In this document: positions 1-58,847 of the stretch, piece after piece
Numbering within the stretch: the stretch's first letter is position 1
Layout of the letters: each line of letters starts with the position of its first letter
Source of the DNA: a virus
Taxonomy: Duplodnaviria; Caudoviricetes
Virus record (IMG/VR): IMGVR_UViG_3300008262_000201
Span: 224 to 64,223 of that record
DNA: 64,000 nucleotides
Reading direction: 5' to 3' (one strand)
The notes under the pieces: model-generated
What the model was told of the DNA's origin: nothing
Databases searched by the model: none
What the model saw: only the letters and a program-made list of their open reading frames with translations
Position numbers and translations under genes: made by a program

Positions 1-62
1 GAGGGGCTTCGGCCCTTCCCACCAGGACTCAACATCCTGGATTCCATTCCATTGCATTTAAC

Positions 63-338
63 ATGTCACTAACAGTTGGCAAAGAAGAACTTGACTCTGC
101 AATTGCAGTGTTCAAGATAGAGCATTACTACCTGGAGTTCGATGACAACATCGTCTATCTCCATTGGGTAGCGACAACATCCCAAGCTCGTGAGTACATT
201 GATGCATTCCTTGAGTGTCTCGATGTACTAATTGACGAGCGATGGGTAGATACCTACGGTTCGCACGAACAAGGTAACCCTGTTCAGCTACCAGATGAAG
301 ACTACATTTGCTGTCGCTATATCCTGGAGACCGTTTGA
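63..338 (+). CDS. hypothetical early protein (acidic)
   Basis: 91-aa ORF with ATG, preceded by hairpins at 1-40; first of a co-oriented small-gene array. Confidence 0.6.
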   Translation: MSLTVGKEELDSAIAVFKIEHYYLEFDDNIVYLHWVATTSQAREYIDAFLECLDVLIDERWVDTYGSHEQGNPVQLPDEDYICCRYILETV

Positions 339-339
339 C

Positions 340-546
340 ATGAAGACGATCTATCGCATGCGTAACGGTTTTATCCAGATGGATTCTTATGGTGAGACTC
401 ATAAGTCCAACCATCTATTGAAAGCTGTGGTGGCTGCACTCATACTTGCCGCTAGCATTAGCACCATCGCAGCACTAGCCAGTAAGTACACGATGCTTGG
501 CCCACAGGGCATCAACGCATCCAAACCGTACGTCATGGGCTACTAG
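340..546 (+). CDS. small membrane protein
   Basis: Likely start at ATG 340, just after the upstream stop; hydrophobic stretch AVVAALILAASISTIAALA. Confidence 0.55.
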   Translation: MKTIYRMRNGFIQMDSYGETHKSNHLLKAVVAALILAASISTIAALASKYTMLGPQGINASKPYVMGY

Positions 547-557
547 CTAGCCATACC

Positions 558-590
558 CTGGGCCTTCCTCCATGAGGATATAAGTCCCAG
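558..590 (+). repeat. motif A copy 1 (bulged intergenic hairpin)
   Basis: CTGGG-CCT-[TCCTC CAT GAGGA]-TA-TAAGT-CCCAG, 25 nt upstream of ATG 616. Confidence 0.75.
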
Positions 591-615
591 TCAACCAACC
601 AACTCATCAATCCCC

Positions 616-990
616 ATGCGCAATCGAGTATCTATCGTCAAGGAAGATCGGATCTGGCAACTCAGGTGCCAGGGATATGACTACGACTCAATCGGTAGCA
701 TTGTCAACTGCAATCCTCGTTACATGACAATTGTATTGCGTCGAGTGAGGCGTCGTCCTCCGATCGAGAAAGACCCAATCAAACGTGGTCGTCGCAGTAA
801 TTTCCTCAGCGATAATCAAGTAGAAGATATTCGTATGCGCAAAGCACAAGGTGAGACTGCACTATCTATTGCCAAGGACTATCACATTGGTGAGTCAGCG
901 ATCTGTAAGATTGCTAACAACGTAACCTATAAGGAACCTGCATACGACAGCGGCTATAGATATAACTTTACTAATAGGCTCACTCGTTAA
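616..990 (+). CDS. double helix-turn-helix DNA-binding protein
   Basis: Two HTH-like segments: GYDYDSIGSIVNC and GETALSIAKDYHIGESAICKI. Confidence 0.7.
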   Translation: MRNRVSIVKEDRIWQLRCQGYDYDSIGSIVNCNPRYMTIVLRRVRRRPPIEKDPIKRGRRSNFLSDNQVEDIRMRKAQGETALSIAKDYHIGESAICKIANNVTYKEPAYDSGYRYNFTNRLTR

Positions 991-994
991 TAAC

Positions 995-1031
995 ACTAGG
1001 CATCCACACCATGTGTGGTGTAAGTCCTAGT
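995..1031 (+). repeat. motif A copy 2
   Basis: ACTAGG-CAT-[CCACAC CAT GTGTGG]-TG-TAAGT-CCTAGT. Confidence 0.85.
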
Positions 1032-1059
1032 CAATTCATTACTCAACTCAACTCAAACC

Positions 1060-1416
1060 ATGACGACACAACTAGCCGAGCACATCCAAGTACTTGAAGC
1101 TCGCATCAATTGCCTCATCGACAAGCTCCTTGCTAGCTACGCTAAGCGCTATGGAGATGGCGGCATTACCTTTGACATTGTTAAAGGTACCAAGTACTAC
1201 AAACTTATTCAACGTGACGTCAAGCGTTCAGCTATTGACGGCAAGACTGGTGCATCAGTCCATGCATTTATTGACCGTCAATCTGGCGCTGTCTACAAAC
1301 CAGCAAGCTGGGCGTCACCAGCTAAGCACGTACGCTACAACCTCATGGACGACGTATCGTTTGCCACCTGCATCCAAGATGCTGATTGGGCTGGCTCATA
1401 TCTGTACATGAAGTAG
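1060..1416 (+). CDS. conserved phage hypothetical protein
   Basis: KYYKL..SVHAFID..G.VYKPASW..PAKHVRY motif, typical of cyanophage small proteins. Confidence 0.75.
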   Translation: MTTQLAEHIQVLEARINCLIDKLLASYAKRYGDGGITFDIVKGTKYYKLIQRDVKRSAIDGKTGASVHAFIDRQSGAVYKPASWASPAKHVRYNLMDDVSFATCIQDADWAGSYLYMK

Positions 1417-1422
1417 TCAACA

Positions 1423-1472
1423 CATGGGCATCCACTATTGAGAATTTTAGCAAGAGTTGTGTAAGTCCCATG
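1423..1472 (+). repeat. motif A copy 3
   Basis: CATGGG-CAT-[long imperfect hairpin]-TG-TAAGT-CCCATG. Confidence 0.8.
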
Positions 1473-1500
1473 CTCAACTGTCCACCTACCTCAACTCAAC

Positions 1501-1725
1501 ATGGGCGCACTCATGGAGCAGACTGAAGACAACAAGCGGTATCACCTCATCATCAACGTTGATGAGAAGTATGCCATCGTCAACGCACTAGCCTTCTATC
1601 ATGCACACCACACTCTGGGTGCACTGATGGATGAGGATGAGCGTGAACAATACATGCTCGCATTCCAAGAAGATGGTCCAACCTTTGTTGATTCCTTAGC
1701 AACAAAGGTGGCCAATACCTTCTGA
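1501..1725 (+). CDS. hypothetical protein
   Basis: ORF between motif A copies, with a CAACTCAAC leader. Confidence 0.65.
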   Translation: MGALMEQTEDNKRYHLIINVDEKYAIVNALAFYHAHHTLGALMDEDEREQYMLAFQEDGPTFVDSLATKVANTF

Positions 1726-1728
1726 TCA

Positions 1729-1767
1729 CTGGGCAGCACCGACGTAAGTACGGTGTGTAAGTCCCAG
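1729..1767 (+). repeat. motif A copy 4
   Basis: CTGGG-CAG-[CACCG..CGGTG]-TG-TAAGT-CCCAG. Confidence 0.85.
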
Positions 1768-1797
1768 GCTTTACTGTCTACTTACTTAACTCAAACC

Positions 1798-1989
1798 ATG
1801 AGAGACCCTAACTTTATTGACGAGCAACGCAACGCTGACTTGCTTGATGCCATGGCTGACATGGCATATGAACAAGAGCAAGCCATGCGTGAATCAGAGG
1901 AATTTGAATGGGACGGCATTGAAGAAATTTCAAGCGCCGAACGAAATGCTTGTGACCATTACAACGAGAGGTACGTAATCAATGACTAA
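1798..1989 (+). CDS. hypothetical acidic protein
   Basis: True start likely ATG 1798 after AACTCAAACC; the track's GTG start lies inside motif A. Confidence 0.6.
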   Translation: MRDPNFIDEQRNADLLDAMADMAYEQEQAMRESEEFEWDGIEEISSAERNACDHYNERYVIND

Positions 1990-2076
1990 GTACACACTGC
2001 GTCAAGCATGGGAGGACGGTGACATCATCGTCATCCTGATCGCAATCATTTCAATCATCATCACGGAGTTTGCATC

Positions 2077-2445
2077 ATGTCTTACATCTCAGCACTCAAG
2101 AAGTTCTACCCCAAGTCCTACAAAGCACGCTTCGCAATCAATGCCTACAACGTGCACAAGTACTTCGAGCACAAAGACCCAACGGTCGTCACGGTCCACG
2201 AAACCTACCTCAGGTACGGTGGACCCGAAGAAGGAGGTTGGTACTACACCCAAGGGGAACCTCTCGTCAGCCACTGCATCTTCTCCAAGAGGCAAGCGGT
2301 CCGGGTCTACGTCAAGTACTTCGAAGAGTACGAGATCGAAGGGCAGCCATCTCTTGGAGATACAACAACTCGATCCAACATCGACATCTGTTTCTCCAAC
2401 GAACTAGCTAAGGCTTACCCTGAATCCCGTCCGTACTACTGCTGA
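2077..2445 (+). CDS. hypothetical phage protein
   Basis: 122-aa ORF with YGGPEEGGWYY motif and C-terminal RPYYC; typical codon usage. Confidence 0.7.
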   Translation: MSYISALKKFYPKSYKARFAINAYNVHKYFEHKDPTVVTVHETYLRYGGPEEGGWYYTQGEPLVSHCIFSKRQAVRVYVKYFEEYEIEGQPSLGDTTTRSNIDICFSNELAKAYPESRPYYC

Positions 2446-2448
2446 TCA

Positions 2449-2691
2449 ATGCAAGCAACTGCAACACCTGCACTCAGTATCAACCAACGCAATCTCTATG
2501 CGTACTACCTAAATCACAAGAAGAAGTATGGGAACACACCATGCTTCGTACCTAAACTTCCATCGCAAAGCTCAAGGCTTGAGCAATATCTCCAGGCCTT
2601 GGTGCGACTGGAAGAATACGGATTGATACGTGTAGACAGAAGCAGTGCTAACTACACAGCATGGATCATGCTTGCACCCAAGGAGCAATAA
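2449..2691 (+). CDS. putative winged-helix protein
   Basis: LSINQRNLYAY...LVRLEEYGLIRVDR resembles a wHTH. Confidence 0.5.
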   Translation: MQATATPALSINQRNLYAYYLNHKKKYGNTPCFVPKLPSQSSRLEQYLQALVRLEEYGLIRVDRSSANYTAWIMLAPKEQ

Positions 2692-2968
2692 GCTACGTCG
2701 TATAACACTAGCGTTATATCATTCGCTATTTGCGAATGGCGAATAGATTATCCCGAGTAATCGAAGTATTGGCATGTATTGGCAATTCTTTGTTGCCAAA
2801 CAATATTAAGTATTAATACCTACCCATCCCTGGTATGTACCTCTAACTAGTGGGTATGTACCAGGGATATCCTTCATTCCTATCTATATCTAGTACACAC
2901 GTACCAAAAATATCTCCTCTTATACCAAGGGATAGTACACATGTACATGGGGAAGACGGGGGAAACCG

Positions 2969-3163
2969 TCAATACCATCTTATTCAACAGTGAATACAGT
3001 CTTATCTAACCCTCTATAGGGTTTCATACTCTTCTAGAAAGCTGTATGGATAAGCTGGTATTCATCCCTTAGGTACCAGGTTTAATACACTTTTTTAACA
3101 ACGTATGAAACCCTATATCTAAGATAATAAGACGGTATTCACCCTTCTATAACACGGTATTCA
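2969..3163. repeat. origin-like palindromic element, copy 1
   Basis: TATAGGGTTTCATAC...GTATGAAACCCTATA inverted arms plus TGAATAC/GTATTCA repeats 22 bp apart; second copy at 37444-37637. Confidence 0.75.
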
Positions 3164-3178
3164 TCCTTTTACCCATCC

Positions 3179-3427
3179 TCACCCAACCACAGACCTCACC
3201 TCAGGTCCAAACCTACGCATCTGATCTAGCATTCTTATCTCTGCTTGTTTGTTTTGCATTGGAATACTTTCATTCCGTATCACAGATGTCAAGAAGTCCA
3301 TCACCTTTTCAGGTGGTGGCATGGAACCTTGTGCTTTCATGTACTCTTGCTTCCATCCCTCAAGGAATGGACTACCACCAACCGCATACCTACCAGCAAT
3401 TAACATAAGTACAAACTCAGATCTCAT
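3179..3427 (-). CDS. hypothetical protein
   Basis: 82-aa ATG ORF filling an otherwise empty gap. Confidence 0.45.
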   Translation of the reverse strand: MRSEFVLMLIAGRYAVGGSPFLEGWKQEYMKAQGSMPPPEKVMDFLTSVIRNESIPMQNKQAEIRMLDQMRRFGPEVRSVVG

Positions 3428-3438
3428 CTAAGTTTAAG

Positions 3439-3477
3439 CCTGGGCATCCACACATTTAGTGTGGTGTAAGTCCCAGG
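3439..3477 (+). repeat. motif A copy 5
   Basis: CCTGGG-CAT-[CCACA..TGTGG]-TG-TAAGT-CCCAGG. Confidence 0.85.
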
Positions 3478-3502
3478 GCATCTCCACTTACTCACAACAA
3501 CC

Positions 3503-3754
3503 ATGCTTGTTTCCAAACTGATTGATCAACTACTTAAAGCACAGAACAAATACGGAGACTTTGACATTTGCGTTTGCGATTCTTCCGAAGCAAACAATGT
3601 CGAATCGATTACTGACGGAGTTGAGTTTAACTTTCGTTTGTTTAACGAGAAAACTTATGAAGAATTACCTGGAATTAGTTTTGAAGAAGAAGAAGAACAA
3701 GATGTTGATCACCAAAGTGCTAAGTACTTTGGTGTAATCTTCCGTGACTACTAA
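3503..3754 (+). CDS. hypothetical protein
   Basis: MLVSKLIDQL..YGD start; sits between motif A copies. Confidence 0.7.
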   Translation: MLVSKLIDQLLKAQNKYGDFDICVCDSSEANNVESITDGVEFNFRLFNEKTYEELPGISFEEEEEQDVDHQSAKYFGVIFRDY

Positions 3755-3761
3755 TTAATAC

Positions 3762-3789
3762 CTGGGCATCCACATGGTGTAAGTCCCAG
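3762..3789 (+). repeat. motif A copy 6
   Basis: CTGGG-CAT-[CC ACAT GG]-TG-TAAGT-CCCAG. Confidence 0.85.
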
Positions 3790-3819
3790 AGTTACACCAA
3801 CCTCACCTTCAACTCAACC

Positions 3820-4107
3820 ATGGAACAAACCAAGAAGTATCCTGAACTCACCTGGACCAAGAACGAGTACCACCAATTGCAGCTAGTACTTGATGCACTC
3901 AAAGCCATTTGTGCTCGCGAAGATAAACGTCATCAAATGGACGAGCATCTTGATCCACACATGCGTAACGTTATCGATGAGGTGATCGGAATGCTGGAAG
4001 ATGAGATCGACTACGATCCAACACCTAACGAATCTGGAGAACCACCCATGACTATGGATGAGATGCACACTGCTGCATGGAAAGAACACCTTGCCATGCA
4101 TTCATAA
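3820..4107 (+). CDS. hypothetical protein
   Basis: 95-aa ORF with CAACTCAACC leader. Confidence 0.7.
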   Translation: MEQTKKYPELTWTKNEYHQLQLVLDALKAICAREDKRHQMDEHLDPHMRNVIDEVIGMLEDEIDYDPTPNESGEPPMTMDEMHTAAWKEHLAMHS

Positions 4108-4129
4108 CACCAGGTAGTACATAAGTACT

Positions 4130-4163
4130 GGCCGTGTATCAGTATCCCTGATGCACGGCCTTT
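4130..4163 (+). terminator. putative intrinsic terminator
   Basis: 13-bp stem GGCCGTGTATCAG/CTGATGCACGGCC followed by TTT. Confidence 0.55.
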
Positions 4164-4210
4164 ACCTTGACTGCCCTGGTAGACTGACCTAGTTAATCAA
4201 CTCAATTCAA

Positions 4211-4420
4211 ATGACATCCTCCAACACTCCTCGCATTCCCGACTCTCTTGACATGCAACGCTTGCAGGCCATGCAGCTTGTAGCGAAGATGAAGGAATCA
4301 GCCGAGAGACATGGCATTGGTTTCATTGGGGGCTTCATTGCTCCCAATGGAGAGAAATTTGTAATGACAAATATGGATGACGATGATGCCATGGCACTCA
4401 TGCCGGAGGATCTCAAGTGA
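4211..4420 (+). CDS. hypothetical protein
   Basis: 69-aa ORF whose stop overlaps the next start. Confidence 0.65.
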   Translation: MTSSNTPRIPDSLDMQRLQAMQLVAKMKESAERHGIGFIGGFIAPNGEKFVMTNMDDDDAMALMPEDLK

Positions 4421-4614
4421 CTAAGAAATCTCCCATTAGTTTTGATCGCACCATTCATGGTGTGAACATCACTGAACATGGTATCAAGTCAGTAAGTAAA
4501 CAGATCAAGCTTGGTCCATTCCAACTGACTGTCAACGCCAGTCCCAATGGCGTCAAAGGATCAGTCAGTATCCCTGGCACAGGCTTGAGCATTCCAAACA
4601 TTAAGTTAATCTAA
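4417..4614 (+). CDS. DUF4236-like protein
   Basis: GIKSVS..GPF...GVKGSVSIPGTGLS pattern. Confidence 0.55.
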   Translation: MTKKSPISFDRTIHGVNITEHGIKSVSKQIKLGPFQLTVNASPNGVKGSVSIPGTGLSIPNIKLI

Positions 4615-4645
4615 AGATCTGGGCATCCTTACGGTGTAAGTCCCA
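4602..4645 (+). repeat. 44-bp direct repeat, copy 1 (contains motif A copy 7)
   Basis: TAAGTTAATCTAAAGATCTGGGCATCCTTACGGTGTAAGTCCCA, identical to 4989-5032. Confidence 0.9.
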
Positions 4646-4673
4646 CATCCAACTTCCATCTCAACATAACACC

Positions 4674-4991
4674 ATGCCTAAGAAACAAGCACTCAATCCT
4701 CACTTCCCTACTGGTCCTAGAACTATTACTCTTGATCTGACTGAAGATCAATGGTGGGCATTGATTAACATGCTCAGAGCACGCACTGATTTCTATAAGA
4801 AGTTGCGGTTTGATCTCATTAGATTAAAGGATGATGGCCTTGAGAAACAAATTGATCAGTACACTGAATCCATGGAAGACATTGTATCTATATTGGAATC
4901 AGTACAAGAACAAGTAGCACCTTTGTATTACACAAAAGCAAAGCGTGCTGAGTGGCGTAAGCAACGTATTGATACACCTGATTTCCCATAA
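4674..4991 (+). CDS. hypothetical protein (repeat-flanked cassette)
   Basis: 105-aa ORF between the two 44-bp repeats. Confidence 0.7.
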   Translation: MPKKQALNPHFPTGPRTITLDLTEDQWWALINMLRARTDFYKKLRFDLIRLKDDGLEKQIDQYTESMEDIVSILESVQEQVAPLYYTKAKRAEWRKQRIDTPDFP

Positions 4992-5032
4992 GTTAATCTA
5001 AAGATCTGGGCATCCTTACGGTGTAAGTCCCA
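4989..5032 (+). repeat. 44-bp direct repeat, copy 2 (contains motif A copy 8)
   Basis: Identical to 4602-4645. Confidence 0.9.
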
Positions 5033-5064
5033 GGTCTTGTCCACCAACTCAATTCAATTCAACC

Positions 5065-5250
5065 ATGGCTACCACAAACACAAACCTCAGCTTGTTTGAT
5101 CGCATCAATGTTGCACGCTGCGCAATGGAGCGTGCCCATAATAATCATTTTGATCGCGATCGTTTTGTTAGCGAGTACACAACTGCAAAGATGTGGACTC
5201 GTTACAACTGCTACATCTCAACCACCGTTTCATTCGTGGAGCCTGACTGA
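5065..5250 (+). CDS. hypothetical protein
   Basis: ORF after AACTCAATTCAATTCAACC leader; stop overlaps the next ATG. Confidence 0.6.
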   Translation: MATTNTNLSLFDRINVARCAMERAHNNHFDRDRFVSEYTTAKMWTRYNCYISTTVSFVEPD

Positions 5251-5510
5251 TGACTGTCCTTGCTATCGAACACACATCATTCACTGACACTCATGTCACA
5301 GTTACAGCAGTTGTTGACGACATGCGCCTACTCTATCGGGCGACTCGCTTCGAGCCTGAAGAGTGGGCTCCTGCACTGTGCACAACAACTATTGAGTTGG
5401 ATCCAGAGGAACCGATTCCTCTTGACGAAGATGGCTTCTGCAGCTATCTTGATCAGCTCGATCCTCACTGGCAACTTGTTGACAACTCTGACTACGATCT
5501 AGATTCATGA
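5250..5510 (+). CDS. hypothetical protein
   Basis: 86-aa acidic ORF, translationally coupled. Confidence 0.65.
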   Translation: MTVLAIEHTSFTDTHVTVTAVVDDMRLLYRATRFEPEEWAPALCTTTIELDPEEPIPLDEDGFCSYLDQLDPHWQLVDNSDYDLDS

Positions 5511-5547
5511 TTGGTTTCTCAATTGAATTCAAACGCTGGTACTTAAA

Positions 5548-6069
5548 ATGAAACACAAACCTATCCCAGAAGAAATTGTTGAATACTTAAAAGTTGATTT
5601 AACAATTCCACATGGATTACGTTGGATCAAGCTAGTACCAAACAATAACAGGTGCAAAGTTGGAGATCCAGCTGGATCAAAATGTTCTAATGGTAAATAT
5701 AATTTACATTACAAACGAATTAAATACTACAATCATCGAATAATTTTTTATCTTCAAAACAATTTAGATCCGGATTATTATCAAGTAGATCATAAGATTC
5801 ATGATGATAATACAGGAGAACTTCGCTTGGCAACCCATCAGCAAAATCATTTTAATCGTAGATCTTGTATTGGTTCTTCTTCTAAATACAAAGGCGTTTC
5901 ATGGCATGCAAAAGACAAACGATGGGAAGCACGAATAGGATTTAACAATGAAATTATTTACATTGGTAAATACATAAATGAAGAAGATGCTGCAATAGCT
6001 TATAACCATGAGGCTATAAAGCTTTTTGGTGATTATGCTTTTATTAACACATTAGCAGAATGTCAATGA
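5548..6069 (+). mobile_element. HNH-AP2 homing endonuclease
   Basis: HRII..VDH..DN..LRLAT..QN, then SKYKGVSW..W.A.I...YIG.Y..EEDAA.AY (AP2 domain); AT-richer than its neighbours. Confidence 0.9.
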
Positions 6070-6269
6070 TTGGATTTTCCATTGAGTTTAAAAAGTTTTA
6101 TTTTGTACTGCGTGGTCCCAAGGGTCGAGTGTATCTGGCAACTGGCTTTGCTAAACGCATGCCAGTCATAATACTGACCGGTGATTACATACTGGAGCAG
6201 TGCATCGGCACATGGCCTGGTGATGAGACTGACGAAGAACTTCTTGATCAGTTGAAAGACATCCGCTAA
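6066..6269 (+). CDS. hypothetical protein (HNH target gene with recoded N-terminus)
   Basis: MIGFSIEFK start, duplicated at 5507-5533. Confidence 0.65.
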   Translation: MIGFSIEFKKFYFVLRGPKGRVYLATGFAKRMPVIILTGDYILEQCIGTWPGDETDEELLDQLKDIR

Positions 6270-6274
6270 TTAAC

Positions 6275-6302
6275 CGTCCTGGGCATGACGTTAAACTGCC
6301 TA
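6275..6302 (+). promoter_or_regulatory. motif B H-type pseudoknot, copy 1
   Basis: CGTC-C-TGGGCA-T-GACG-TTAAAC-TGCCTA. Confidence 0.8.
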
Positions 6303-6324
6303 TTCTACTTACTCATTTAACCCA

Positions 6325-6624
6325 ATGGAAATCAATTCTCCAACACCTCCTTTAGATCTTGTCAATGATTGGATGACACATTGGTATGACGATAACCAAA
6401 CAGATGACACGCAACCGCTGTATATTGCAACTAAAGCTTCAATGTGGGGCGCAATCTGGGGTGCTACCAATGCTTTGGAAACAGCCATCCAAGACACGGC
6501 ACCTGTTCATTGGCGCGTAGCTGGTGGGGCAGAAGATGGCCAACAGGTAGTACGTGTTATTGATTTAATGGAATGGCTTGCACAGTTCCGTAAAGAATAC
6601 GAAGAAAAGATGTCTTGTAATTAA
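6325..6624 (+). CDS. hypothetical protein (TPP..W/WGA family)
   Basis: PTPPLDLVNDW...ASMWGA resembles the paralogs at 9799 and 10438. Confidence 0.65.
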   Translation: MEINSPTPPLDLVNDWMTHWYDDNQTDDTQPLYIATKASMWGAIWGATNALETAIQDTAPVHWRVAGGAEDGQQVVRVIDLMEWLAQFRKEYEEKMSCN

Positions 6625-6629
6625 TCAAC

Positions 6630-6657
6630 CGTCCTGGACATGACGCTAAACTGTCCA
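6630..6657 (+). promoter_or_regulatory. motif B pseudoknot, copy 2
   Basis: CGTC-C-TGGACA-T-GACG-CTAAAC-TGTCCA. Confidence 0.85.
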
Positions 6658-6679
6658 TTCCACTTACCTACACTACACC

Positions 6680-8419
6680 ATGCAATTCGCTCTGCCTTCC
6701 AATCTTCAGACTGAACTCTTGGCTTATGATCCAAAGCTCAAGGCTTTGGCTAAGCAAGCCAACAAACCAGAAGCCAAGAAACCGACGTATCCACTTGGCA
6801 AGATTCCTTGCTTGATACCAACACACATTGTGCGTGAAGCCGATCAGCAAGATGCAATTGCTCAGATCAATCAGCGTCCAGCACCACAGCGTTATCAAGT
6901 CTTTACTACACCTGTAGATGTAGCAACACCACAGGCTAGGCTCAAGGTCATTGCCATCCTGTATCACTACGAACAGGTGTGGTATGCAGCATGGTTACCT
7001 TCTAAGCAAGAGAAGGATCAGTATGTGTACGGTCATGCGTATGCATTCAAGAACACATCAGCTACACAGAAGACTGCACCAAATTGGATATGGAATAGCA
7101 AAGATGATTGCGTTGTCCACGACATTGGTCGTGGCTCACAACTCTTTGTCTACACCAATACAGCAACCATAGAAGATATCCGCGAAAAAGATTACGATAG
7201 CTGGCGTAGTTATCCATGGCGAGCAGGTAACCTTTACTGCCAGAAGGGTTATACAATTCGTGATACTGTTGTTAATGAATTTGATAACAGCCTGCGGGAA
7301 AATCTCCCAACATGGGAAGATTCCCGTGGATTGTTTGATCGCATACGCTGCAAGAATATCTTTGATGCAGCAAACATACCGTCAATGATGTCAAAGCATC
7401 TTGATGAAACTCAAGGCTTGACTGTTGATAACTTCATTGCTGCTTCACTTGCATTCAAAGAAGAACACGGCTATAGCTCATTAACGTATTCTGTTGTCAC
7501 AAAGATTCAGCACATTGTTACTAAACCTGCCATCAAGAAACTATTGCAAGCAGAGTTAAACCGTAGCATTGATGCATATAATGATCCCAATAACAAACAC
7601 CAGCAACCTATTAGGCAAGGCTTTGCAACTTTTGTGCAGATCCTTAACTCAATCGAGTGGATTGATTCCATCTGGCCAGACTGCCCTATTGATTACTATC
7701 AGACTTATTTCAAAGAACTTAAGTATCTTCGCTTGACTGAAGTGCGTCTACGCAGTGGGGCTACACAAGAGCCTTGTTTAATCGACTGGTTACGTGAGCA
7801 CATGCCTATTGCATCACTGTTTACAATCATGCGTAAGTACTTGGACAAACAACTTACTGAATACAATGGTCGCTGGGTTGACAGCGATGTTGGGTACCAG
7901 CGTCAACGCTTTGGTGAACTCAACGATACATTCTCCATGATGCTTAAGATCCTTCATGTTGGTAATACATTGGAGCCACCGAAGCGTTGGCGTCTGACCG
8001 AGTTCCATGACTACGTACAATCCGAAGCATGGAAGATCCAGAATCCAAAGGAGTCCCTACGTCAAGATCTATTTCCTGAACCCATCAAAGTCACACGTCT
8101 TGATAGGGTATGGACATTCTTTCAGCCTGTTGACACACATCAACTATCCATGTGGGGGCAAGCCGTACGCAACTGCGTTGGCTCTGCATCCCACTATGCG
8201 GATGACATCAAGAAACGTAAGCACTTCATTGTGTTATGTATGATTGATAACAAGCCCACCTTCACAATTCAATTGGTTGTGGACCAGGGTATGATGTCAG
8301 TCAAGCAGATTGCTGGCGTTGGCAATCGCAGTCTTGACTCAATAGAACGCAACGATTACACGGAAGCCTTCCGTGAGGTCTTGCAATTGCGTGAATCTGA
8401 GCTAAGCTCTAAGAGCTGA
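6680..8419 (+). CDS. PcfJ-like domain protein
   Basis: C-terminal HD..P....L..WG....NCVG..Y......FTI......QI.G..N pattern. Confidence 0.75.
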   Translation: MQFALPSNLQTELLAYDPKLKALAKQANKPEAKKPTYPLGKIPCLIPTHIVREADQQDAIAQINQRPAPQRYQVFTTPVDVATPQARLKVIAILYHYEQVWYAAWLPSKQEKDQYVYGHAYAFKNTSATQKTAPNWIWNSKDDCVVHDIGRGSQLFVYTNTATIEDIREKDYDSWRSYPWRAGNLYCQKGYTIRDTVVNEFDNSLRENLPTWEDSRGLFDRIRCKNIFDAANIPSMMSKHLDETQGLTVDNFIAASLAFKEEHGYSSLTYSVVTKIQHIVTKPAIKKLLQAELNRSIDAYNDPNNKHQQPIRQGFATFVQILNSIEWIDSIWPDCPIDYYQTYFKELKYLRLTEVRLRSGATQEPCLIDWLREHMPIASLFTIMRKYLDKQLTEYNGRWVDSDVGYQRQRFGELNDTFSMMLKILHVGNTLEPPKRWRLTEFHDYVQSEAWKIQNPKESLRQDLFPEPIKVTRLDRVWTFFQPVDTHQLSMWGQAVRNCVGSASHYADDIKKRKHFIVLCMIDNKPTFTIQLVVDQGMMSVKQIAGVGNRSLDSIERNDYTEAFREVLQLRESELSSKS

Positions 8420-8468
8420 AGCCACAGCAGGGGCATCCTATCCTCGTAAATGGGATGCCTCTTTACCT

Positions 8469-8678
8469 ATGGACTACACCGATGACCAACTACTTGCCAT
8501 GGCCATGGCCAACATTGGTGAGTACATTACGGACAACTCACCGCAGTACATCTTGATTGAAGAAGATCCTCGCAATGAGGATGACTACGATAGCTGGACT
8601 TACGGAATGGAAGTCCTGCCTCAAGATCACACTTGGCAGTCAGATTCAATTGACGTAAGCCCAAGTGAGGCCGACTAG
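8469..8678 (+). CDS. hypothetical acidic protein
   Basis: 69-aa ORF; its 3' end overlaps motif A copy 9 and the tRNA 5' end. Confidence 0.5.
   Translation: MDYTDDQLLAMAMANIGEYITDNSPQYILIEEDPRNEDDYDSWTYGMEVLPQDHTWQSDSIDVSPSEAD
8630..8667 (+). repeat. motif A copy 9 (directly before tRNA-Leu)
   Basis: CACTTGG-CAG-[TCAG ATTCAA TTGA]-CG-TAAGC-CCAAGTG. Confidence 0.65.
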
Positions 8679-8744
8679 CCCAACGGCAGAGGCAAGCGAC
8701 TTAAAATCGCTACAGTCCCGGTTCGAATCCGGGGTCGGCTACCA
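8669..8744 (+). tRNA. trnL: tRNA-Leu(TAA) with a short variable loop
   Basis: Acceptor GGCCGAC/GTCGGCT, anticodon arm AGCGA-CTTAAAA-TCGCT, T arm CCCGG-TTCGAAT-CCGGG, encoded ACCA. Confidence 0.92.
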
Positions 8745-8762
8745 ACTCAACACACTACACCA

Positions 8763-9122
8763 ATGGACATCATTCGTTCGATCAAGTGCCTTATTCCTGA
8801 GTTCCATGCCTTCAGTGCTGAGGACAGGGGCTATCACGTTGGTGCTACCTGGACTGACGACCAGGGGTTGCGTGACTATCACAACGTTGAACTCAAGTAC
8901 ACACGCAACTCAGAACGTCTAGCGCTCCAAGGCAAGCAGCAGCCTGATGGCAGTTGGCTTTACATTGAACCCAATGGTCGTTGCCATGTCATGTCAGCAG
9001 AGCGTGCTGCTCACTTCATGGCCCAGGCACAGGCACAAGCTCAGATCCTGGAACAAATGTTACAGAACATGAACACAGATGGAGGCGATGGAGTGGTAGA
9101 CACCACTGCGATAACTGTGTAA
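8763..9122 (+). CDS. hypothetical protein
   Basis: 119-aa ATG ORF after the tRNA. Confidence 0.65.
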   Translation: MDIIRSIKCLIPEFHAFSAEDRGYHVGATWTDDQGLRDYHNVELKYTRNSERLALQGKQQPDGSWLYIEPNGRCHVMSAERAAHFMAQAQAQAQILEQMLQNMNTDGGDGVVDTTAITV

Positions 9123-28708: not shown

Positions 28709-29380
28709 TTATACATCTTCATTAGGTGTTCTCCAAAAGTACTCATCGTTTTCTCCAAGACGACCCCACTTGGGGGCGTGTTCCACATCAAAGTAGCGTG
28801 TTGATACCTTGAAGTCTGGTGTCTTGAGGTTGTGATAACTCAATGATGGATCAACCATGCGACACCGATTGTTGGGATAAGCGCCAATTTGACCGTTGTC
28901 CAAAGCCACAATATTATGGGATTTGTGCTCATCAGGAAACTCCGAAAAGTAAAAATCAGGTTCGTTCCGATGAGGATGATAATTGTCTACGGTAAATAAA
29001 TATGTGCCCTTCATTACACCTGCGCTTCGTGTCAGGATTTCAAAACCCATGTTGAAGATTAAATTCTTTTCAACGATCGTAAGTCCATGGTCAAACCCAT
29101 TCCAGAACTGAAGGTCTGTCAACTCCAAGTCAGGTGTAGGTTCTTTGGGTTTGTCTGGATAGTCTGAGTCCCATGCAAGAAACGCACTGATAGGAAGCTT
29201 GTCATACAACGCTCCGTACTCAGTCAAGTACGCTTCAAAATACAGTGCTCGACCCGTAAGTGATTTACAGGTGACCCAATAGCCAGGTGTGTACTCACCA
29301 TGTCCTTTCTGAAGGTCGTACAGATATTCCTTGCGGACCCATACTTTGATTGGTGGTACGTTGGCAACAAGAGTTGTCAC
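28709..29380 (-). CDS. conserved cyanophage hypothetical protein
   Basis: N.PP..VWVRKEYLYD..KGHGE...GALYDKLPISAF...EHKS.N...L.NGQ..AYPNNR. Confidence 0.85.
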   Translation of the reverse strand: MTTLVANVPPIKVWVRKEYLYDLQKGHGEYTPGYWVTCKSLTGRALYFEAYLTEYGALYDKLPISAFLAWDSDYPDKPKEPTPDLELTDLQFWNGFDHGLTIVEKNLIFNMGFEILTRSAGVMKGTYLFTVDNYHPHRNEPDFYFSEFPDEHKSHNIVALDNGQIGAYPNNRCRMVDPSLSYHNLKTPDFKVSTRYFDVEHAPKWGRLGENDEYFWRTPNEDV

Positions 29381-40208: not shown

Positions 40209-41213
40209 TCAATAGTTCCAACGAACGCGTGGCTTGCCTTCTCTGATACCAAGGTGCACGAAACCTTTTGGTGCGCCGTAGCCTAATGAGTAAGGCCAAT
40301 TTTTATCACACCAGCTTTGCACTGTGTTGATATCCACACCATCAACGTAAAAATCAACGGCTCCTTTTGATGGAGCACTGTAAGTGTGCTCACTGTTCTT
40401 GGCACCGCCTACTTGTGTATTGATGGGTTCTGGGCGAGAAGCACTTGTGATGATCAATGGTTTGTTACCAAATTGCTTACGTACTTTCTCAAGGAATAAA
40501 CAAAGTTCTTTTGCCGTATCACATTGATACTGTTTGGTGAACCGACGAGCTTCTTGATTAAGAGTTAATTCACCATAGGTGATGTTAGGTGTGATCTTAT
40601 AGGTGAACGGGCTCCAAGGAGTAAAGTTACTGGCGTGCGGGTCAACATCTTTTTTTTCTCCAATGTTTTGGAGTTGTCGATCCATAATTTGAATTAATTT
40701 TGTACTGTAGTCTGGATCAGTAGCGTATCCTTCTTTGACCAGTAAACGCGCACATTCATTTCTACTGGTTGCCCTGTTAACACCTTTGTGCCCATCAAAG
40801 TCTTTGTACCAACGATCAACAAGGTACGAAACACAGGTTCTTAGGTCAGGGAAATCAATGAATCCAGCCTTGATTGTGATCCACTGACCGTTGATAAATT
40901 CCTTTGTTTCAACCGTAGAGCCAGATCCTTTTAATCCAAAGTAATTGTTTTTACCGGAGGTGTGTTGACCCCAGCCAGACTCAAGTGCCCACTGTGCAGC
41001 AACGCATTCAGGAAATTTGGCACCTGCTTCTTTTGCTGTTTTAACAACAACATCCCAAGTAATGGTGCTTTCCTTGGCTGGCTTATTGCGATATTTAACA
41101 GAAAAAGACTCCAAGACCTCAGGTGTTAACTGAGATTGGAGCCATTCCCATGCGTCAATTTGATGCGGTTCTTTGTTAAAGAACTCAGCAGCGTCTGTAA
41201 GTTTAATTGTCAC
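40209..41213 (-). CDS. bifunctional endolysin: GH73 glucosaminidase plus peptidase M15
   Basis: AQWALESGWG..NNYFGLK..GYATDPDY; ITS..R...N..VGGA.NS.H..AVD..FVHL. Confidence 0.9.
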   Translation of the reverse strand: MTIKLTDAAEFFNKEPHQIDAWEWLQSQLTPEVLESFSVKYRNKPAKESTITWDVVVKTAKEAGAKFPECVAAQWALESGWGQHTSGKNNYFGLKGSGSTVETKEFINGQWITIKAGFIDFPDLRTCVSYLVDRWYKDFDGHKGVNRATSRNECARLLVKEGYATDPDYSTKLIQIMDRQLQNIGEKKDVDPHASNFTPWSPFTYKITPNITYGELTLNQEARRFTKQYQCDTAKELCLFLEKVRKQFGNKPLIITSASRPEPINTQVGGAKNSEHTYSAPSKGAVDFYVDGVDINTVQSWCDKNWPYSLGYGAPKGFVHLGIREGKPRVRWNY

Positions 41214-41263: not shown

Positions 41264-41635
41264 TTAAACTTCAACGTAACCAAGTGGATGCGGTAATGGC
41301 GGCAAAGGATCTGGTACGTCCCAGGGGAGTCCTGATGCTTTGTTTAATTCCGCATCAACGCGTGCTGCCAAAGCGTTTTCAATTTCCTTAACGCGGTCAG
41401 ACGTAAGGGCATCTTTGCACCAGCCCATGACGGTCTCTTTATTGAGGCTGAGATAGGGCACCCATTTTTTACGGTCAGCGGGGGCAAGTTCAACAATGCC
41501 AGAAGTACTGACTGTGTACTTACCCGCCATCTGATACGCAAACCAATGGATTGCTGTGACTTCACTACCTGGGTAAGAAGCACTATCCGGAAGTCTCCGA
41601 TCTAGCAATGAAATTCCCCAGGTAGTTTTAGTCAT
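41264..41635 (-). CDS. tail-fibre-associated protein
   Basis: W.I..L.R..PD...V..IHW...PY..L.KE.V.GW...G.PW; paralog of 41856. Confidence 0.7.
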   Translation of the reverse strand: MTKTTWGISLLDRRLPDSASYPGSEVTAIHWFAYQMAGKYTVSTSGIVELAPADRKKWVPYLSLNKETVMGWCKDALTSDRVKEIENALAARVDAELNKASGLPWDVPDPLPPLPHPLGYVEV

Positions 41636-49616: not shown

Positions 49617-49943
49617 ATGGACATGTTCCCTCCTGTTGACGTAACCAATGGGTGCGTAGATGGCGTTTGTCCAGTACCCTGGGTTACTATTAAACCACTT
49701 GAAACAACGCCCACAATCAAAGAGGATGTCGTAAATCATCCTTCCCATTACACCGATGGGGGCATCGAATGCATCGAAGCCATTGAGGCGGCTTTAACCA
49801 ACGAAGAATTCCGTGGTTACTGCAAGGGAAATAACATAAAGTATATTTGGCGTGAGCGCCACAAAGGCGAGACAGAATCACTGAAGAAAGCACAGTGGTA
49901 CCTAGATCGTCTTATTCAATTGGACGAAAGTCAAAAGGGATGA
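49617..49943 (+). CDS. DUF3310 (T7 gp1.7-like nucleotide kinase family) protein
   Basis: VNHPSHY..GGIECIEAI...GN.IKY.WR...K...LKKA.WYL. Confidence 0.9.
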   Translation: MDMFPPVDVTNGCVDGVCPVPWVTIKPLETTPTIKEDVVNHPSHYTDGGIECIEAIEAALTNEEFRGYCKGNNIKYIWRERHKGETESLKKAQWYLDRLIQLDESQKG

Positions 49944-51087: not shown

Positions 51088-51384
51088 TTACCATTTCGTT
51101 TTATGCGACCAGTACCTTGCTGACATCTTGTCAGGGTTGGAATCCTGGGCATTATGTCTGGCGTAATAAGATTTCTTACGTGCTTTATCCTTTGCTGTTG
51201 TTGGGTTTTTACCAGCGCCTTCTACGCCTTGTTGACCAAACCTAATGATTTTTTCCTCGCCTCCTTCACATGCTTTGACAACGTGTGACTTAGTTGCATG
51301 ACCAGGAGTTTTTCTTGGCTTGTTGCATTCCATGGAATCCTTGTGGATCTTGGCGGCACTAGCTGCTTTTTTGTGCTTACTCAT
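51088..51384 (-). CDS. conserved basic phage protein
   Basis: K.HVV....K.IRFGQQG...RKKSY.ARH...SA.YWS. Confidence 0.8.
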   Translation of the reverse strand: MSKHKKAASAAKIHKDSMECNKPRKTPGHATKSHVVKACEGGEEKIIRFGQQGVEGAGKNPTTAKDKARKKSYYARHNAQDSNPDKMSARYWSHKTKW

Positions 51385-54594: not shown

Positions 54595-56139
54595 TCATGG
54601 TTGCGAACGATTGCCATACTGATCAATCATTGTGAAATTTTGTACTTCAATCCGATCTGTTGCAAAGTTAAATAAACGCTGCAACATCGGATACACAGAT
54701 AACGATTGGCAGTTGTAAGGAGGTACATCCATTCTTGACAGTGACTCCCTGGCAAGCTTATCCTTTTTAATTGCGTCTATTTCACTATCTGTCTTTGCCA
54801 CTAGTTGTCTTTCCCATTCAGCCATGCTTTCTATGTCTGTTGGAAAATCAGATGGCTCAGGAGGAAATACGCGATCTGCAAACTTAAGCGAATAGATATG
54901 TTTGCAATAACGCAGCTCGTCTAAAACAGGTGACCATCTGTCTTCAAGAGTTACTAGCGTAATCTGTGGAATGGAACTGCTATCAAGTGTCTCCGTAACA
55001 GACGTATAGTCAGCAAAGGTTGGCATGCCTTCTGCAGAAGAGCCTTGAGTACCGAGGTTATCGGTGCTGCGTGTATAAGTACCGCCAAAGTCTGCATAAA
55101 GTCCTGGGCTGTCCCTCGTCGCATCACGACTGATAACACGATCTGTTGTGACTTGATTCGTCAAATCAAACGAAGGAGGTGCTGTAATTTCTAATGTGAG
55201 ATTGATGGAAGGATCTACTTGTGCGGGAGTTTTCAAGATACCATCACGTTTGGTAAGTTCAAAACGACCTGGTTTAACCGTGGCAATATTAGTGCGTGGA
55301 AATAACTTCCTTGGATTCTCCGAGGATACATAGAAGTAGTCTCGCCGTGTAAAGTCTTGGCATGTGCAACTGTATCGCGCACCAGAGTTTAGATAGCGTC
55401 CTGGAGTAAATCCAATAGGTGAAGGAGTTACAAAGTTTTCATCTGGTGTTGCTTGTACGGAACCCGACTTTCGGAACTTAAGAATACCAGTGGTTTCGTT
55501 GATGTCTAGTAACACTGCGGATACATAGCCGTACCGTGTTTGCGTATTGGGATTGATCGTATCAACTTCAATTAACTCACCACCGGAAGCAACAATACGA
55601 TCCTCAAACACTTCCGAGATTAAAGGCTTTTGTCCACCAGGGAAAAAGAATGGTGGTGGCAGTGGGTTTGATGAGCTCCAGGTGCCTGTCAATTTTACGT
55701 ACCAATAGTTCTTGTCTTCTGTTACTGATTCAACAGATAAGTTACTGGTGCTTACGGGGTCGGTGTATAAGTCAGTTCTGATGGCTCCTGCATAGCGCCA
55801 CAAGCACCAATGCATACCAAGCTCTCGACTCTTCGTTGGGAAGCCAATAAACGCTCCCTGGATAACAATGGGAGGACTAGGAGCAAATACAACGTCTGGA
55901 ATATTGTATTCAAACTCGTATGTAAAGTATTGTCCGTTTGAATAGATTTCGTAACCCCTACGCCAACGTGCCCATGCTGACTCCCTATCAATCGTCCAAA
56001 TTGAACCAGGGAGTGATCCTTTGGAAAACTCCCCTTGAATTGGTTTTACTTCCTTGGGATTAATCTGATCTTTTACCTTGCCAAAGTCACCAAAAGAATT
56101 TGTTCTTTGTCCGCCGAAAGAGTTGCCTCTCTTTGACAT
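54595..56139 (-). CDS. hypothetical protein with a split SWIM-like motif
   Basis: YSCTCQDF...YCKHI about 150 aa apart. Confidence 0.75.
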   Translation of the reverse strand: MSKRGNSFGGQRTNSFGDFGKVKDQINPKEVKPIQGEFSKGSLPGSIWTIDRESAWARWRRGYEIYSNGQYFTYEFEYNIPDVVFAPSPPIVIQGAFIGFPTKSRELGMHWCLWRYAGAIRTDLYTDPVSTSNLSVESVTEDKNYWYVKLTGTWSSSNPLPPPFFFPGGQKPLISEVFEDRIVASGGELIEVDTINPNTQTRYGYVSAVLLDINETTGILKFRKSGSVQATPDENFVTPSPIGFTPGRYLNSGARYSCTCQDFTRRDYFYVSSENPRKLFPRTNIATVKPGRFELTKRDGILKTPAQVDPSINLTLEITAPPSFDLTNQVTTDRVISRDATRDSPGLYADFGGTYTRSTDNLGTQGSSAEGMPTFADYTSVTETLDSSSIPQITLVTLEDRWSPVLDELRYCKHIYSLKFADRVFPPEPSDFPTDIESMAEWERQLVAKTDSEIDAIKKDKLARESLSRMDVPPYNCQSLSVYPMLQRLFNFATDRIEVQNFTMIDQYGNRSQP

Positions 56140-56141
56140 GA

Positions 56142-56930
56142 TTAGAAGAAACCGCCTTCAGCGTAGACGTGTGCACCTGGGATGTATCCAGATGCGTTAG
56201 GACCGTCAGGAAACACGCCTACGTACAAACGGTCGCCACGTTCCAGGTAAATACCACGGTTGCGTAACGGAGCACCAGCAGAGAGCCCTGAGGCGTTACC
56301 AGCGGCTGGGTTGGGTGCCGCAAGTTGAGGCATCACATCCGAACAATCAACTTGTTGTGTGTTGGCAGGAACACGCTTGGCAAGTACAACTTTGTAGTCG
56401 CCACTCGCTGGGATAGGCTGCGTGGTACCACGGGTCTGATAGACGACAAATGTTACTTCTGGCTGGTACGGACCAACGGTACCGCCGTAAGAAAAACCAC
56501 TTGCGTCAGGCGTCGCAACACCAGAGTACCGAATGGTTCCCATGGTACCGGTAATTGCCGTCGCACCTGTATAGGTGTAGTACCCAAGTCCACTCTCTGC
56601 TGCTGGAGTGTTAAGTCCAGTGGCCGTAATAAAAACAGTCTGGCCACTTACCAGTCGGATGCGTGTGCCAGTGGTTGTGGAATCAAGGGTGTAGTCAGGA
56701 TTGCGATAGTAGTCATTACGAACAATAGTGATGGAGTCGACAACACCACCACTATTATTGTCTTCTTGAAGTGCAGCATCCATATCGACAAGGATCGAAG
56801 GAGCTTGTCCGCCTTGCACAAAGAGTGTGTTAGCGGATGCGCTACCAACGGTCTGAGTCGTGACTCGTACCGAATCAAAAAGAGGCCTGTCAACTAACAG
56901 GGGCTGCTTATTTGTATTTGTCGAAGCCAA
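56142..56930 (-). CDS. putative virion structural protein
   Basis: MASTNTNKQP.L.DRP...GG(F)F end; beta-rich. Confidence 0.75.
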   Translation of the reverse strand: MASTNTNKQPLLVDRPLFDSVRVTTQTVGSASANTLFVQGGQAPSILVDMDAALQEDNNSGGVVDSITIVRNDYYRNPDYTLDSTTTGTRIRLVSGQTVFITATGLNTPAAESGLGYYTYTGATAITGTMGTIRYSGVATPDASGFSYGGTVGPYQPEVTFVVYQTRGTTQPIPASGDYKVVLAKRVPANTQQVDCSDVMPQLAAPNPAAGNASGLSAGAPLRNRGIYLERGDRLYVGVFPDGPNASGYIPGAHVYAEGGFF

Positions 56931-56968
56931 GGGTCTACAGCACTAATATCCACCATTATACCTGAGTT

Positions 56969-57646
56969 TCAATAACCAGGTGTAGATAATGGATTGGTTA
57001 TAACACCTAGATTCTTGCTCATGCTACCTAAGAATTCTGCAAATCGTTGACCTGCATTTTTAGGTTGTGGTGCACTTTGCATAGCTTGCTGCATCAACTT
57101 GATACCCATTGCTTCTTCAAGCGTAGGTCCATACACAGGTGCAGAGCCCGCTACTTGTGGTGCTGGCGCTGCGACAGAAGGTTGTCCGCCAACGTCAAGA
57201 GGATCTCCTAACACACGTTGTGCGTTAGCGTATAGATCGCCTCCTTTTCTAAAACGTGGCAATGCCCCACGGACAGATGTACCGAAAGAATCCTTTGCTT
57301 CTAGAGAAACATTTGGATTGCCGCCAAGGACCGTGGCATATGCACGATCAATACCCATGCCTGGTTTAAAACCTCTGTCTTCAAAATACTTCAAAACAGC
57401 AGGCATTTGACCAGCCCTTGTTTGAGGACCAGTAATTCCGTATAGTTTTTGTTCGTTTTGTCCAAACTGAATTAAACCTTTGTGCCGTCCTCCTGCGCCC
57501 CCTACAATGTTAGGATCCATATTCATCCCTGATTCCAGGGATAAAAATGCGCCAAACTCATATGGATCTAAGCCAAGGCGCTTAGCTCCTTCAAAGATTG
57601 CTTGCCTTTCGTTTGTAGGAAGAATTCCAACTCGTGGTGTGGCCAT
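56969..57646 (-). CDS. virion lysozyme/transglycosylase-like protein
   Basis: LESG..GLIQF..Q...V.KY...Y..VL.GN. Confidence 0.7.
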   Translation of the reverse strand: MATPRVGILPTNERQAIFEGAKRLGLDPYEFGAFLSLESGMNMDPNIVGGAGGRHKGLIQFGQNEQKLYGITGPQTRAGQMPAVLKYFEDRGFKPGMGIDRAYATVLGGNPNVSLEAKDSFGTSVRGALPRFRKGGDLYANAQRVLGDPLDVGGQPSVAAPAPQVAGSAPVYGPTLEEAMGIKLMQQAMQSAPQPKNAGQRFAEFLGSMSKNLGVITNPLSTPGY

Positions 57647-57659
57647 GGCAATTAGGTCC

Positions 57660-57776
57660 TTATTCTCCTACCCAATTTGAATCTGCTTTGAGTCCAGGAA
57701 TAAAAACAGTCTGTACAGCGGCAACAAGACTGATCTTCGTGGCTAAACGCTTAACAAAATTAGGACAGAGAATCAT
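57660..57776 (-). CDS. 38-aa peptide (not in ORF track)
   Basis: MILCPNFVKRLATKISLVAAVQTVFIPGLKADSNWVGE, downstream of motif A copy 10. Confidence 0.45.
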   Translation of the reverse strand: MILCPNFVKRLATKISLVAAVQTVFIPGLKADSNWVGE

Positions 57777-57831
57777 TGGTTTAAAAGCAACAACACTGGC
57801 CCCCATAGATCAAAGATCTGTGTCCAGTAGG

Positions 57832-57858: not shown

Positions 57859-57861
57859 AAA

Positions 57862-58845: not shown

Positions 58846-58847
58846 AA

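Follow-up and report, generated by a model that had tools for sequence, protein, structure and literature searches.

A short hairpin motif recurs eight times before small early genes in the window analysed here, a 64,000-nucleotide stretch comprising nearly all of the 64,223-base IMG/VR viral contig IMGVR_UViG_3300008262_000201 (estimated 81% complete), and we conclude that this motif is most likely an undescribed RNA signal marking the start of each expression unit. The closest isolate, and the sole close one, is Synechococcus phage S-EIV1, with approximately 75% identity over parts of positions 1811-5541. Positions 1-5550 hold small plus-strand open reading frames (ORFs) with few or no annotated domains, and DNA polymerase A, a primase-helicase, ThyX, structural genes and two tRNA genes lie beyond this early region. 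The elements of the motif follow the order P1 - C-A-U - P2 hairpin - U-G - U-A-A-G-U - P1', P1 and P2 being helices of free sequence around a nearly invariant internal loop.

Structure and placement of the motif

Direct reading placed the P1 5' arms at 558, 995, 1423, 1729, 3439, 3762, 4619 and 5006, where an earlier reading made from the letters alone (the sequence-only reading) had put them, and a covariance model recovered the same set. The model was seeded with 34 minimal copies, 33 of them from contigs other than the window, chosen by a pattern fixing 16 bases. Run on the 64-kb window with default filters (E ≤ 10), it returned these eight copies alone, at 555-5036 and all on the plus strand. 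With filters off, 18 matches had E ≤ 10; E < 1 was reached only by the eight copies, the next matches all having E ≥ 2.6. Scores ranged from 49.8 bits (copy 8) down to 14.1 bits (copy 1, E = 0.33). The sequence GTAAGTCC was found 10 times in the window against 1.33 occurrences expected (0 of 100 shuffles reached 10), and seven of the ten lie on the plus strand within 1020-5030.

Applied to viral contigs at E ≤ 0.05, the model gave 95 matches from 70 sources; 76 of these are distinct. In the alignment of these 76 copies, 86.7% of 887 cells were paired, compared to 78.5% in shuffles (0 of 500 reached the observed value), which take no account of kinship between sequences, and to 22-46% when partners were slid. 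Both sides had changed at 7 of 12 pairs; P1 pair 4:62, for example, is CG in 56 copies, AU in 8, UA in 5 and GC in 2, with 3 unpaired. The P1 covariation quoted in the sequence-only reading (CTGGG/CCCAG, ACTAGG/CCTAGT, CATGGG/CCCATG) was correct, and the results bear out its description of a dispersed, strand-specific, covarying single-strand structure with a variable inner hairpin. P1 measures 5-8 base pairs (bp). P2 may be as short as 2 bp capped by a tetraloop or as long as a 13-bp arm (7 to 36 nt for closing pairs and insert together), and it varies even at single orthologous sites, e.g. before the conserved gene that follows copy 8. Since single sequences fold with only modest energy (z from -0.2 to -3.3, above -2 in four of the eight copies), the case rests on comparative covariation.

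The two helices enclose a 3x7 internal loop, C-A-U opposite U-G-U-A-A-G-U, which is nearly invariant. Among 20 distinct copies lying outside the scan pattern, U51, U53-A54-A55-G56 and C9 were present in all 20, G52 in 19, U57 in 17 and A10 in 16, figures that lean upward as these copies were found by a model trained on pattern-selected seeds. Pair 6:60, next to the loop, is GC in 14, UA in 4 and AU in 2 of the same copies and is thus fully compensated. As a separate observation, copies with a TTAC or TTGC loop (copies 7 and 8 included) have a P2 loop that, with one further base, is complementary to the internal-loop GUAAG; their predicted minimum-energy fold is an alternative hairpin, which is not conserved in other loop variants.

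The motif occupies a regular place relative to genes. From the last P1 pair to the ATG, copies 1 to 8 leave 25, 28, 28, 30, 25, 30, 28 and 31 nt, the range of 25-31 nt noted previously, and a same-strand stop precedes seven of the eight, copy 5 being the start of the rightward operon, again as noted. Each copy is followed by a G-poor, C/A-rich leader without Shine-Dalgarno sequence (591-615, 1032-1059, 1473-1500, 1768-1797, 3478-3502, 3790-3819, 4646-4673 and 5034-5064 for copies 1 to 8, plus strand). Leaders pooled from S-EIV1-like contexts whose start codon is 10-45 nt after the match contain 31% A, 37% C, 5% G and 27% T, against 22% G in the window. In 63 distinct contexts of the S-EIV1-like loci (group A, see below), the start codon lies 12-40 nt after the match in 57, with a mode of 24-28, and an upstream stop lies within 13 nt in 47. 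A crude assignment of strand by local ORF content gave 63 of 85 contexts from all groups in sense, 22 unclear (mostly G+C-rich loci) and none antisense; for groups B and C the sense orientation was confirmed by named flanking genes.

Same-strand junctions of 1-5550 with a spacer longer than 20 nt hold a copy in seven of nine cases, the two others being 4107->4211 and 5510->5548, and no copy is found at overlapping or abutting genes of the early region. Copy 5 and its orthologues start an operon and have no gene upstream. The last gene of the left operon (2449-2691) has no copy after it, a 740-nt non-coding region being present instead. The motif goes with the downstream gene: it opens operons and is missing after an operon's last gene, group C excepted.

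Breakpoints of gene presence and absence fall at the copies, as the sequence-only reading had suggested they might. Related strains in public runs are devoid of the ORF between copies 5 and 6 (joint 3478->3792) or of the one between copies 7 and 8 (joints 4591 or 4619->5006), and in the assembled contigs L030 and L047 copy 5 is joined to the copy 6 leader, the intervening gene being absent. Copies 7 and 8, which flank ORF 4674-4991, have in common an identical stretch of approximately 43 nt, to which the preceding gene contributes its last 14 nt. These breakpoints are compatible alike with homologous and with site-specific exchange.

The individual copies, all on the plus strand, differ in form. 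Copy 1 (558..590; model 555-593) is deviant: it has P1 CTGGG/CCCAG and the TAAGT bulge, the C-A-U and U-G elements are absent, and it lies between a stop 11 nt before it (544-546) and ATG 616. Copy 2 (995..1031; ATG 1060; model 993-1033, 29.8 bits) has P1 ACTAGG/CCTAGT, a compensated G-C to A-U change, and a 6-bp P2. Copy 3 (1423..1472; ATG 1501; model 1421-1474, 30.1 bits), with P1 CATGGG/CCCATG, contains a long, partly degenerate P2 insert; P2 is still paired in its orthologues (L047, L035, L036). Copy 4 (1729..1767; ATG 1798; 21.3 bits) has a single-base bulge G, not U, and P2 CACCG/CGGTG, its orthologue in L029 displaying a compensated P2 change from C-G to T-A. Copy 5 (3439..3477; ATG 3503; 40.2 bits) is the first element of its operon, and copies 6 (3762..3789; ATG 3820; 40.1 bits), 7 (4619..4645; ATG 4674; 41.1 bits) and 8 (5006..5033; ATG 5065) are minimal forms, copy 7 with a TTAC loop and a P1 one mismatch shorter, copy 8 being the best match.

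Two more compensated sense copies had been claimed elsewhere, of which one stood in part. A degenerate ninth copy is present at 8630-8667 on the plus strand (P1 CACTTGG/CCAAGTG, bulge TAAGC; no model score). Only 1 nt separates it from the tRNA gene 8669-8741, and the 3' part of ORF 8469-8678 runs across it to terminate within the tRNA gene; L025 (motif 593-638, tRNA-Leu from 639) and L036 show this same layout, with well-formed orthologues that abut tRNA-Leu. The other candidate, near 29080, was rejected, having no model score, a fold that is not motif-like and a position antisense to ORF 28709-29380.

Several neighbouring features can be described. The junction 4107->4211 contains a short hairpin with TAAGT (4111-4132), possibly a decayed copy, and a strong terminator-like hairpin with a T-rich tail is located at 4130-4160. 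ORF 5548-6069, inserted at the end of the motif block, has a sub-threshold AP2-domain match (29.9 bits, cut-off 33.3) and resembles genes annotated as homing endonucleases in other phages. The 740-nt non-coding region (2692-3436), probably a control or origin region, contains direct repeats (3050-3170), inverted repeats (2826-2868, 3015-3117) and tandem GTATTGGCA boxes at approximately 2764-2782, the reverse complement of which stands directly before operon-opening copies in L018, L036, L026 and L029. Ahead of the first gene (ATG 63) stand two ordinary hairpins and a leader of 25 nt, the conserved loop being absent; a hairpin followed by a leader of about 25 nt may be the general design of the early region.

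Distribution among phages

In IMG/VR a loose pattern matched at least 113 loci, many by chance; among the listed matches with an 8-nt gap, GGTG or GGTA before the bulge, which the pattern does not require, is present in 31 of 37 distinct ones. A strict 20-base pattern gave 88 loci. The motif-bearing loci, compared as contig fragments, fall into at least five phage groups with no local gene content in common. Group A (at least 34 loci) is S-EIV1-like and carries by the model 2-6 copies per genome in one region and on one strand, with the exception of a weak match (E = 0.042) in genome G003; in complete relatives this is a single early region, and in genome G001 all six copies are on one strand within 8.3 kb (55,010-63,265). 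S-EIV1 itself has two copies by the model, at record positions 41436-41478 and 40726-40787.

Group B (at least 12 loci) consists of fragments of large phages whose head protein is 67% identical to that of Synechococcus phage S-CBWM1; contigs of 65.7 kb (30% complete) and 99.5 kb (46% complete) hold one copy each. The order in this group is a gene of 155-167 amino acids (aa), the copy, a small covarying hairpin, a Shine-Dalgarno sequence and the major head gene, and the copy stands before the major head gene in 12 of 12 group B loci among the matches listed. The stem of the second hairpin (L033, L039, L046, L050 and others) covaries, TGGTT..AACCA against TGTGTG CACACA, and is followed by a conserved TTTGAAGWC ahead of the Shine-Dalgarno sequence; S-CBWM1 has a stretch similar to this second-hairpin region, the motif being absent from it.

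In group C (at least 5 loci, 62% G+C) the copy is located 1 nt after a stop codon. Approximately 370 nt of degenerate G-rich repeats with embedded hairpins come after it (e.g. L024 3380-3745, minus strand). The large terminase of this group is closest to those of cyanosiphoviruses S-CBS1/S-CBS3 (51.6% identity with S-CBS1), Ralstonia phages being almost tied (48-50%). In group D (at least 4 loci) the copy precedes a gene of 446 aa. The match in its members L114 and L180 starts 14 nt after a TATAAT box and tRNA-Asn follows within 2 nt; in L124 the match starts approximately 7 nt after a TATAAT box, and L183, L155 and L178 have TTGCAT-N18-TATGTA upstream of the copy. All these boxes were read by eye, the last one being of a kind that would fail our promoter-scan criteria. 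Group E (at least 2 loci) is set apart by local gene content.

When two motif variants were compared by BLAST with 50,697 phage records, no true copy was found. An 18-base pattern searched in 185,579 species genomes (596 billion bases) gave 7 matches compared to approximately 17 expected by chance, P1 being present in two of the seven (L124, L130), and none of the sampled cyanobacterial genomes (0 of 7 and 0 of 151), scored under stricter filters, had a match. By these sequence searches, the motif belongs to phages rather than to cells. Rfam 15 recognised only two tRNAs in the window at gathering thresholds and, at E ≤ 10 over 400-5600, three weak matches of which none is at a copy, in agreement with the earlier opinion that the motif is of no named family. 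A literature search with the motif sequences returned no phage-RNA paper among the matches listed, and titles and abstracts on S-EIV1 do not mention the repeat among the matches listed.

Proposed role in early RNA

The features described above suggest an RNA element read through its loop, because the helices are free, the loop is fixed, the orientation is single and the position is the 5' edge of units whatever the gene. Our leading, still tentative, reading is that the motif is a sequence-specifically recognised RNA leader module which would govern the processing or stability of the downstream RNA, the shuffling of gene cassettes being a by-product. The module would be transcribed within the 5' leader of an expression unit and act in cis, its two helices holding the fixed asymmetric loop. 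This loop would be the part that is recognised, whether a protein or nuclease binds it or it folds compactly by itself. It would mark a cut or end site of the polycistronic early RNA, after which the hairpin would cap the downstream RNA, so that each cistron and its unstructured G-poor leader would be insulated and stabilised. As a 30-45 nt module repeated in one orientation, it would also become a substrate for recombination inserting or deleting single-gene cassettes. The structure with its covariation, the invariant loop, the place and orientation, the confinement to phages and the breakpoints are observed; we infer that the motif acts at the RNA level, is bound and affects processing or stability. 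Hosts seem to differ between the groups and cells are without the motif; the reader would therefore be a widely conserved cell component, a phage protein or the fold itself.

A bolder version, to which we give appreciably less credence, is that of a portable tag confined to phages: the 3x7 loop, read by a dedicated factor or forming a nuclease-resistant fold at the 5' cassette boundary, would have spread between lineages, would control the fate of the RNA and would drive shuffling. The unrelated lineages concerned include at least two cyanophage lineages.

The sequence-only reading had proposed three kinds of system: processing sites like those of T7, a self-cleaving or protein-binding RNA, and recombination sites of the attC or promoter early stem-loop (PeSL) type. 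In the T7 early region, RNase III sites are hairpins with a bulge or internal loop, placed between the cistrons of a polycistronic transcript and sharing their loop; in such a site the internal loop that is cleaved is set in a double helix of about two turns. The present motif is likewise a hairpin repeated between early cistrons. It differs in that the minimal copies have approximately 9-12 bp in all (P1 of 5-8 bp, two doubtful pairs and 2 bp under the tetraloop), in that the conserved part is the 3x7 loop, and in that copies also open operons, abut tRNA genes and elsewhere precede a late head gene. Many copies are thus too short for RNase III, and a site of the T7 type is not supported. For an element complete in about 28 nt self-cleavage is improbable, and no known class of self-cleaving ribozyme gave an Rfam match. 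Among the options that had been put forward, a protein-binding RNA would be the best fit. Compared by description, the lambda boxB/nut, MS2 and PP7 operators resemble the motif as 15-30 nt hairpins with fixed unpaired bases and free stems; unlike them, it occurs in up to 8-9 copies per early region and across unrelated phage groups.

Candidate partner proteins were sought by an all-against-all comparison of the window with genomes G001 (first 80,000 of 80,654 bases), G005, G006, G008 and G009. Only ThyX, AdoMet decarboxylase, a 98-aa basic protein and small proteins are common to groups A and B, the small ones having no Pfam match above the curated cut-off; in these six sequences nothing is shared with groups C or D. 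The 98-aa basic protein (51088-51384, minus strand), which has weak DUF6321/DUF5754 matches, is present in S-EIV1-like and S-CBWM1-like contigs, and a DUF3310 protein (49617-49943) recurs only in loci linked to group A. We also found nine public RNA runs, six of which hold 5-6% of sampled words and are kept as contigs.

Several observations weigh against a processing or stabilising module. The six-sequence comparison did not reveal a partner protein, and the contigs of the RNA runs, of approximately 150-250 nt, represent strain variants in which no transcript starts or ends are visible. A plain stabilising hairpin does not need an invariant loop. By the model, no copy is present in S-CBWM1, S-CBS1 or S-CBS3, the nearest isolates to groups B and C, so that the motif is dispensable for those lineages and its distribution patchy, and in group C the next gene is approximately 370 nt away, which fits a 3' element equally. 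C9:G52 and A10:U51, the pairs flanking the bulge, display no compensation in the 76 copies; the 3x7 internal loop is therefore a better drawing than a bulged continuous helix. The wobble test of the folding strand was uninformative (24 G-U against 30 A-C), and G52 is changed to A, giving a C-A mismatch, in 6 distinct copies. From these counts and mismatches, a single-stranded DNA structure is possible.

Alternatives and significance

We rank processing with end protection ahead of a role in translation. A translational operator or enhancer, in which the hairpin, placed 24-31 nt before start codons that have no Shine-Dalgarno sequence, would dock the 30S subunit or bind a phage repressor switching off the early genes jointly, as with T4 RegA, is nevertheless the next explanation to consider, although an unlikely one. 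It would account for the tight distance to the start codon in S-EIV1-like phages, for the scarcity of G and the absence of a Shine-Dalgarno sequence in the leaders, and for the presence of copies at spaced junctions and not at overlapping or abutting genes. However, start codons in groups B and D are 46-87 nt distant and come with a Shine-Dalgarno sequence of their own, tRNA genes directly adjoin some well-formed copies (L025, L036, L114), and the distance to the next gene in group C is larger still. Complementarity between loop and leader, found in 12 leaders compared to 7.0 ± 2.4 in shuffles (84 of 2000 reach this value), is not clearly enriched.

A role at the DNA level, the folded single strand or the repeat serving as a recombination site like attC or the PeSLs, appears improbable. 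Integron attC sites are imperfect palindromes with unpaired bases and a variable terminal structure, arrayed in one orientation between promoter-less cassettes. The motif shares this anatomy, i.e. an imperfect hairpin with extrahelical bases, a variable terminal structure and one orientation; it differs in that the core consensus of attC is not visible and in that large genomes carry single copies. The breakpoints of two cassettes coincide with copies, in L030 and L047 among others, copies 7 and 8 share their long identity around an extra ORF, and the distribution across unrelated phages is patchy. Against this, no tyrosine recombinase (PF00589) was detected in five genomes, two of them complete, by a search that was positive in 14 of 14 controls, and an attC site was rejected on this ground. 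The single copies before the major head gene on the 65.7- and 99.5-kb contigs have no partner site on those contigs. Moreover, orthologous sites retain their copies even as P1 and P2 change in a compensated manner, which argues for selection on the fold in place and not for recent movement, and any repeat of 30-45 nt would yield such breakpoints through homologous recombination. We regard recombination as a consequence of the repeat.

A PeSL of T4-like phages (PMC4122927) begins with a stem-loop and continues through a sigma-70-like -35/-10 promoter and a Shine-Dalgarno sequence to the start codon. PeSLs resemble the motif as repeated elements between small early ORFs located at indel breakpoints of close relatives, and an association with indels between close relatives is indeed seen here. 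They differ in having a promoter where the motif has a G-poor leader of 25-31 nt with no promoter-like match, and the PeSL stem-loop is without an invariant internal loop. The PeSL assignment was accordingly rejected: there is no sigma-70-like promoter between hairpin and ATG, and the spacer is too short. A sigma-70-like scan of 1-9000 gave 8 sites where shuffles predict 18.1, and no copy coincides with any of the 8.

That the motif is a promoter, of the hairpin or the T7/Syn5 type, at which an unrecognised phage RNA polymerase would start just after P1 is very improbable. Such a promoter would fit the short range before genes, the tRNA genes that begin 0-2 nt after the match and the lack of a motif after an operon's last gene. 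In addition, when the loop is GTAA, the 5' half of a copy agrees with most of the 15-bp Syn5 promoter as printed in PMC3950665. This match depends on one of many loop variants, the spacing is variable and no such polymerase was found, and we take the likeness as coincidence. The T7-type single-subunit RNA polymerase domain (PF00940) was not found in the five genomes (two complete), a weak negative as the control genomes do not carry the family; no window ORF has the two-barrel catalytic motif in a large protein, and no gene for an N4-type giant virion polymerase is present, the largest window ORF having 946 aa and the largest S-EIV1 coding sequence 2.7 kb. In the absence of a sigma-70-like match and of a T7-type or N4-type polymerase, a promoter of the motif's own is unlikely. 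Furthermore, P2 length varies by more than 30 nt, which would break any fixed double-stranded spacing, and a TATAAT box is already upstream in group D and L124; a phage-polymerase promoter was rejected on these grounds.

Just as improbable is a selfish miniature repeat of the REP or MITE kind, without phage function and tolerated only in intergenic spacers, which would explain the patchy, multi-copy occurrence, the absence from the nearest isolates of groups B and C and the link to indels, but which is at odds with the single orientation relative to genes, with an invariant loop and helices covarying across groups, with the repeated presence before the same orthologous genes (as before the major head gene in group B) and with the fact that no transposase candidate was seen.

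Almost nothing is known of early gene expression in freshwater cyanophages such as S-EIV1, most genes of which are unannotated. The motif represents an RNA family that is compact, well supported and nearly invariant in its loop; neither Rfam nor the cellular genomes searched contain it, and its presence in unrelated phage groups provides a handle for experiments with S-EIV1 in culture. Were a specific factor to read it, the motif would serve naturally, in approximately 30 nt, as an insulator of RNA or a tag for its processing. It also offers a testable account of the gain and loss of small early genes in S-EIV1-like phages.

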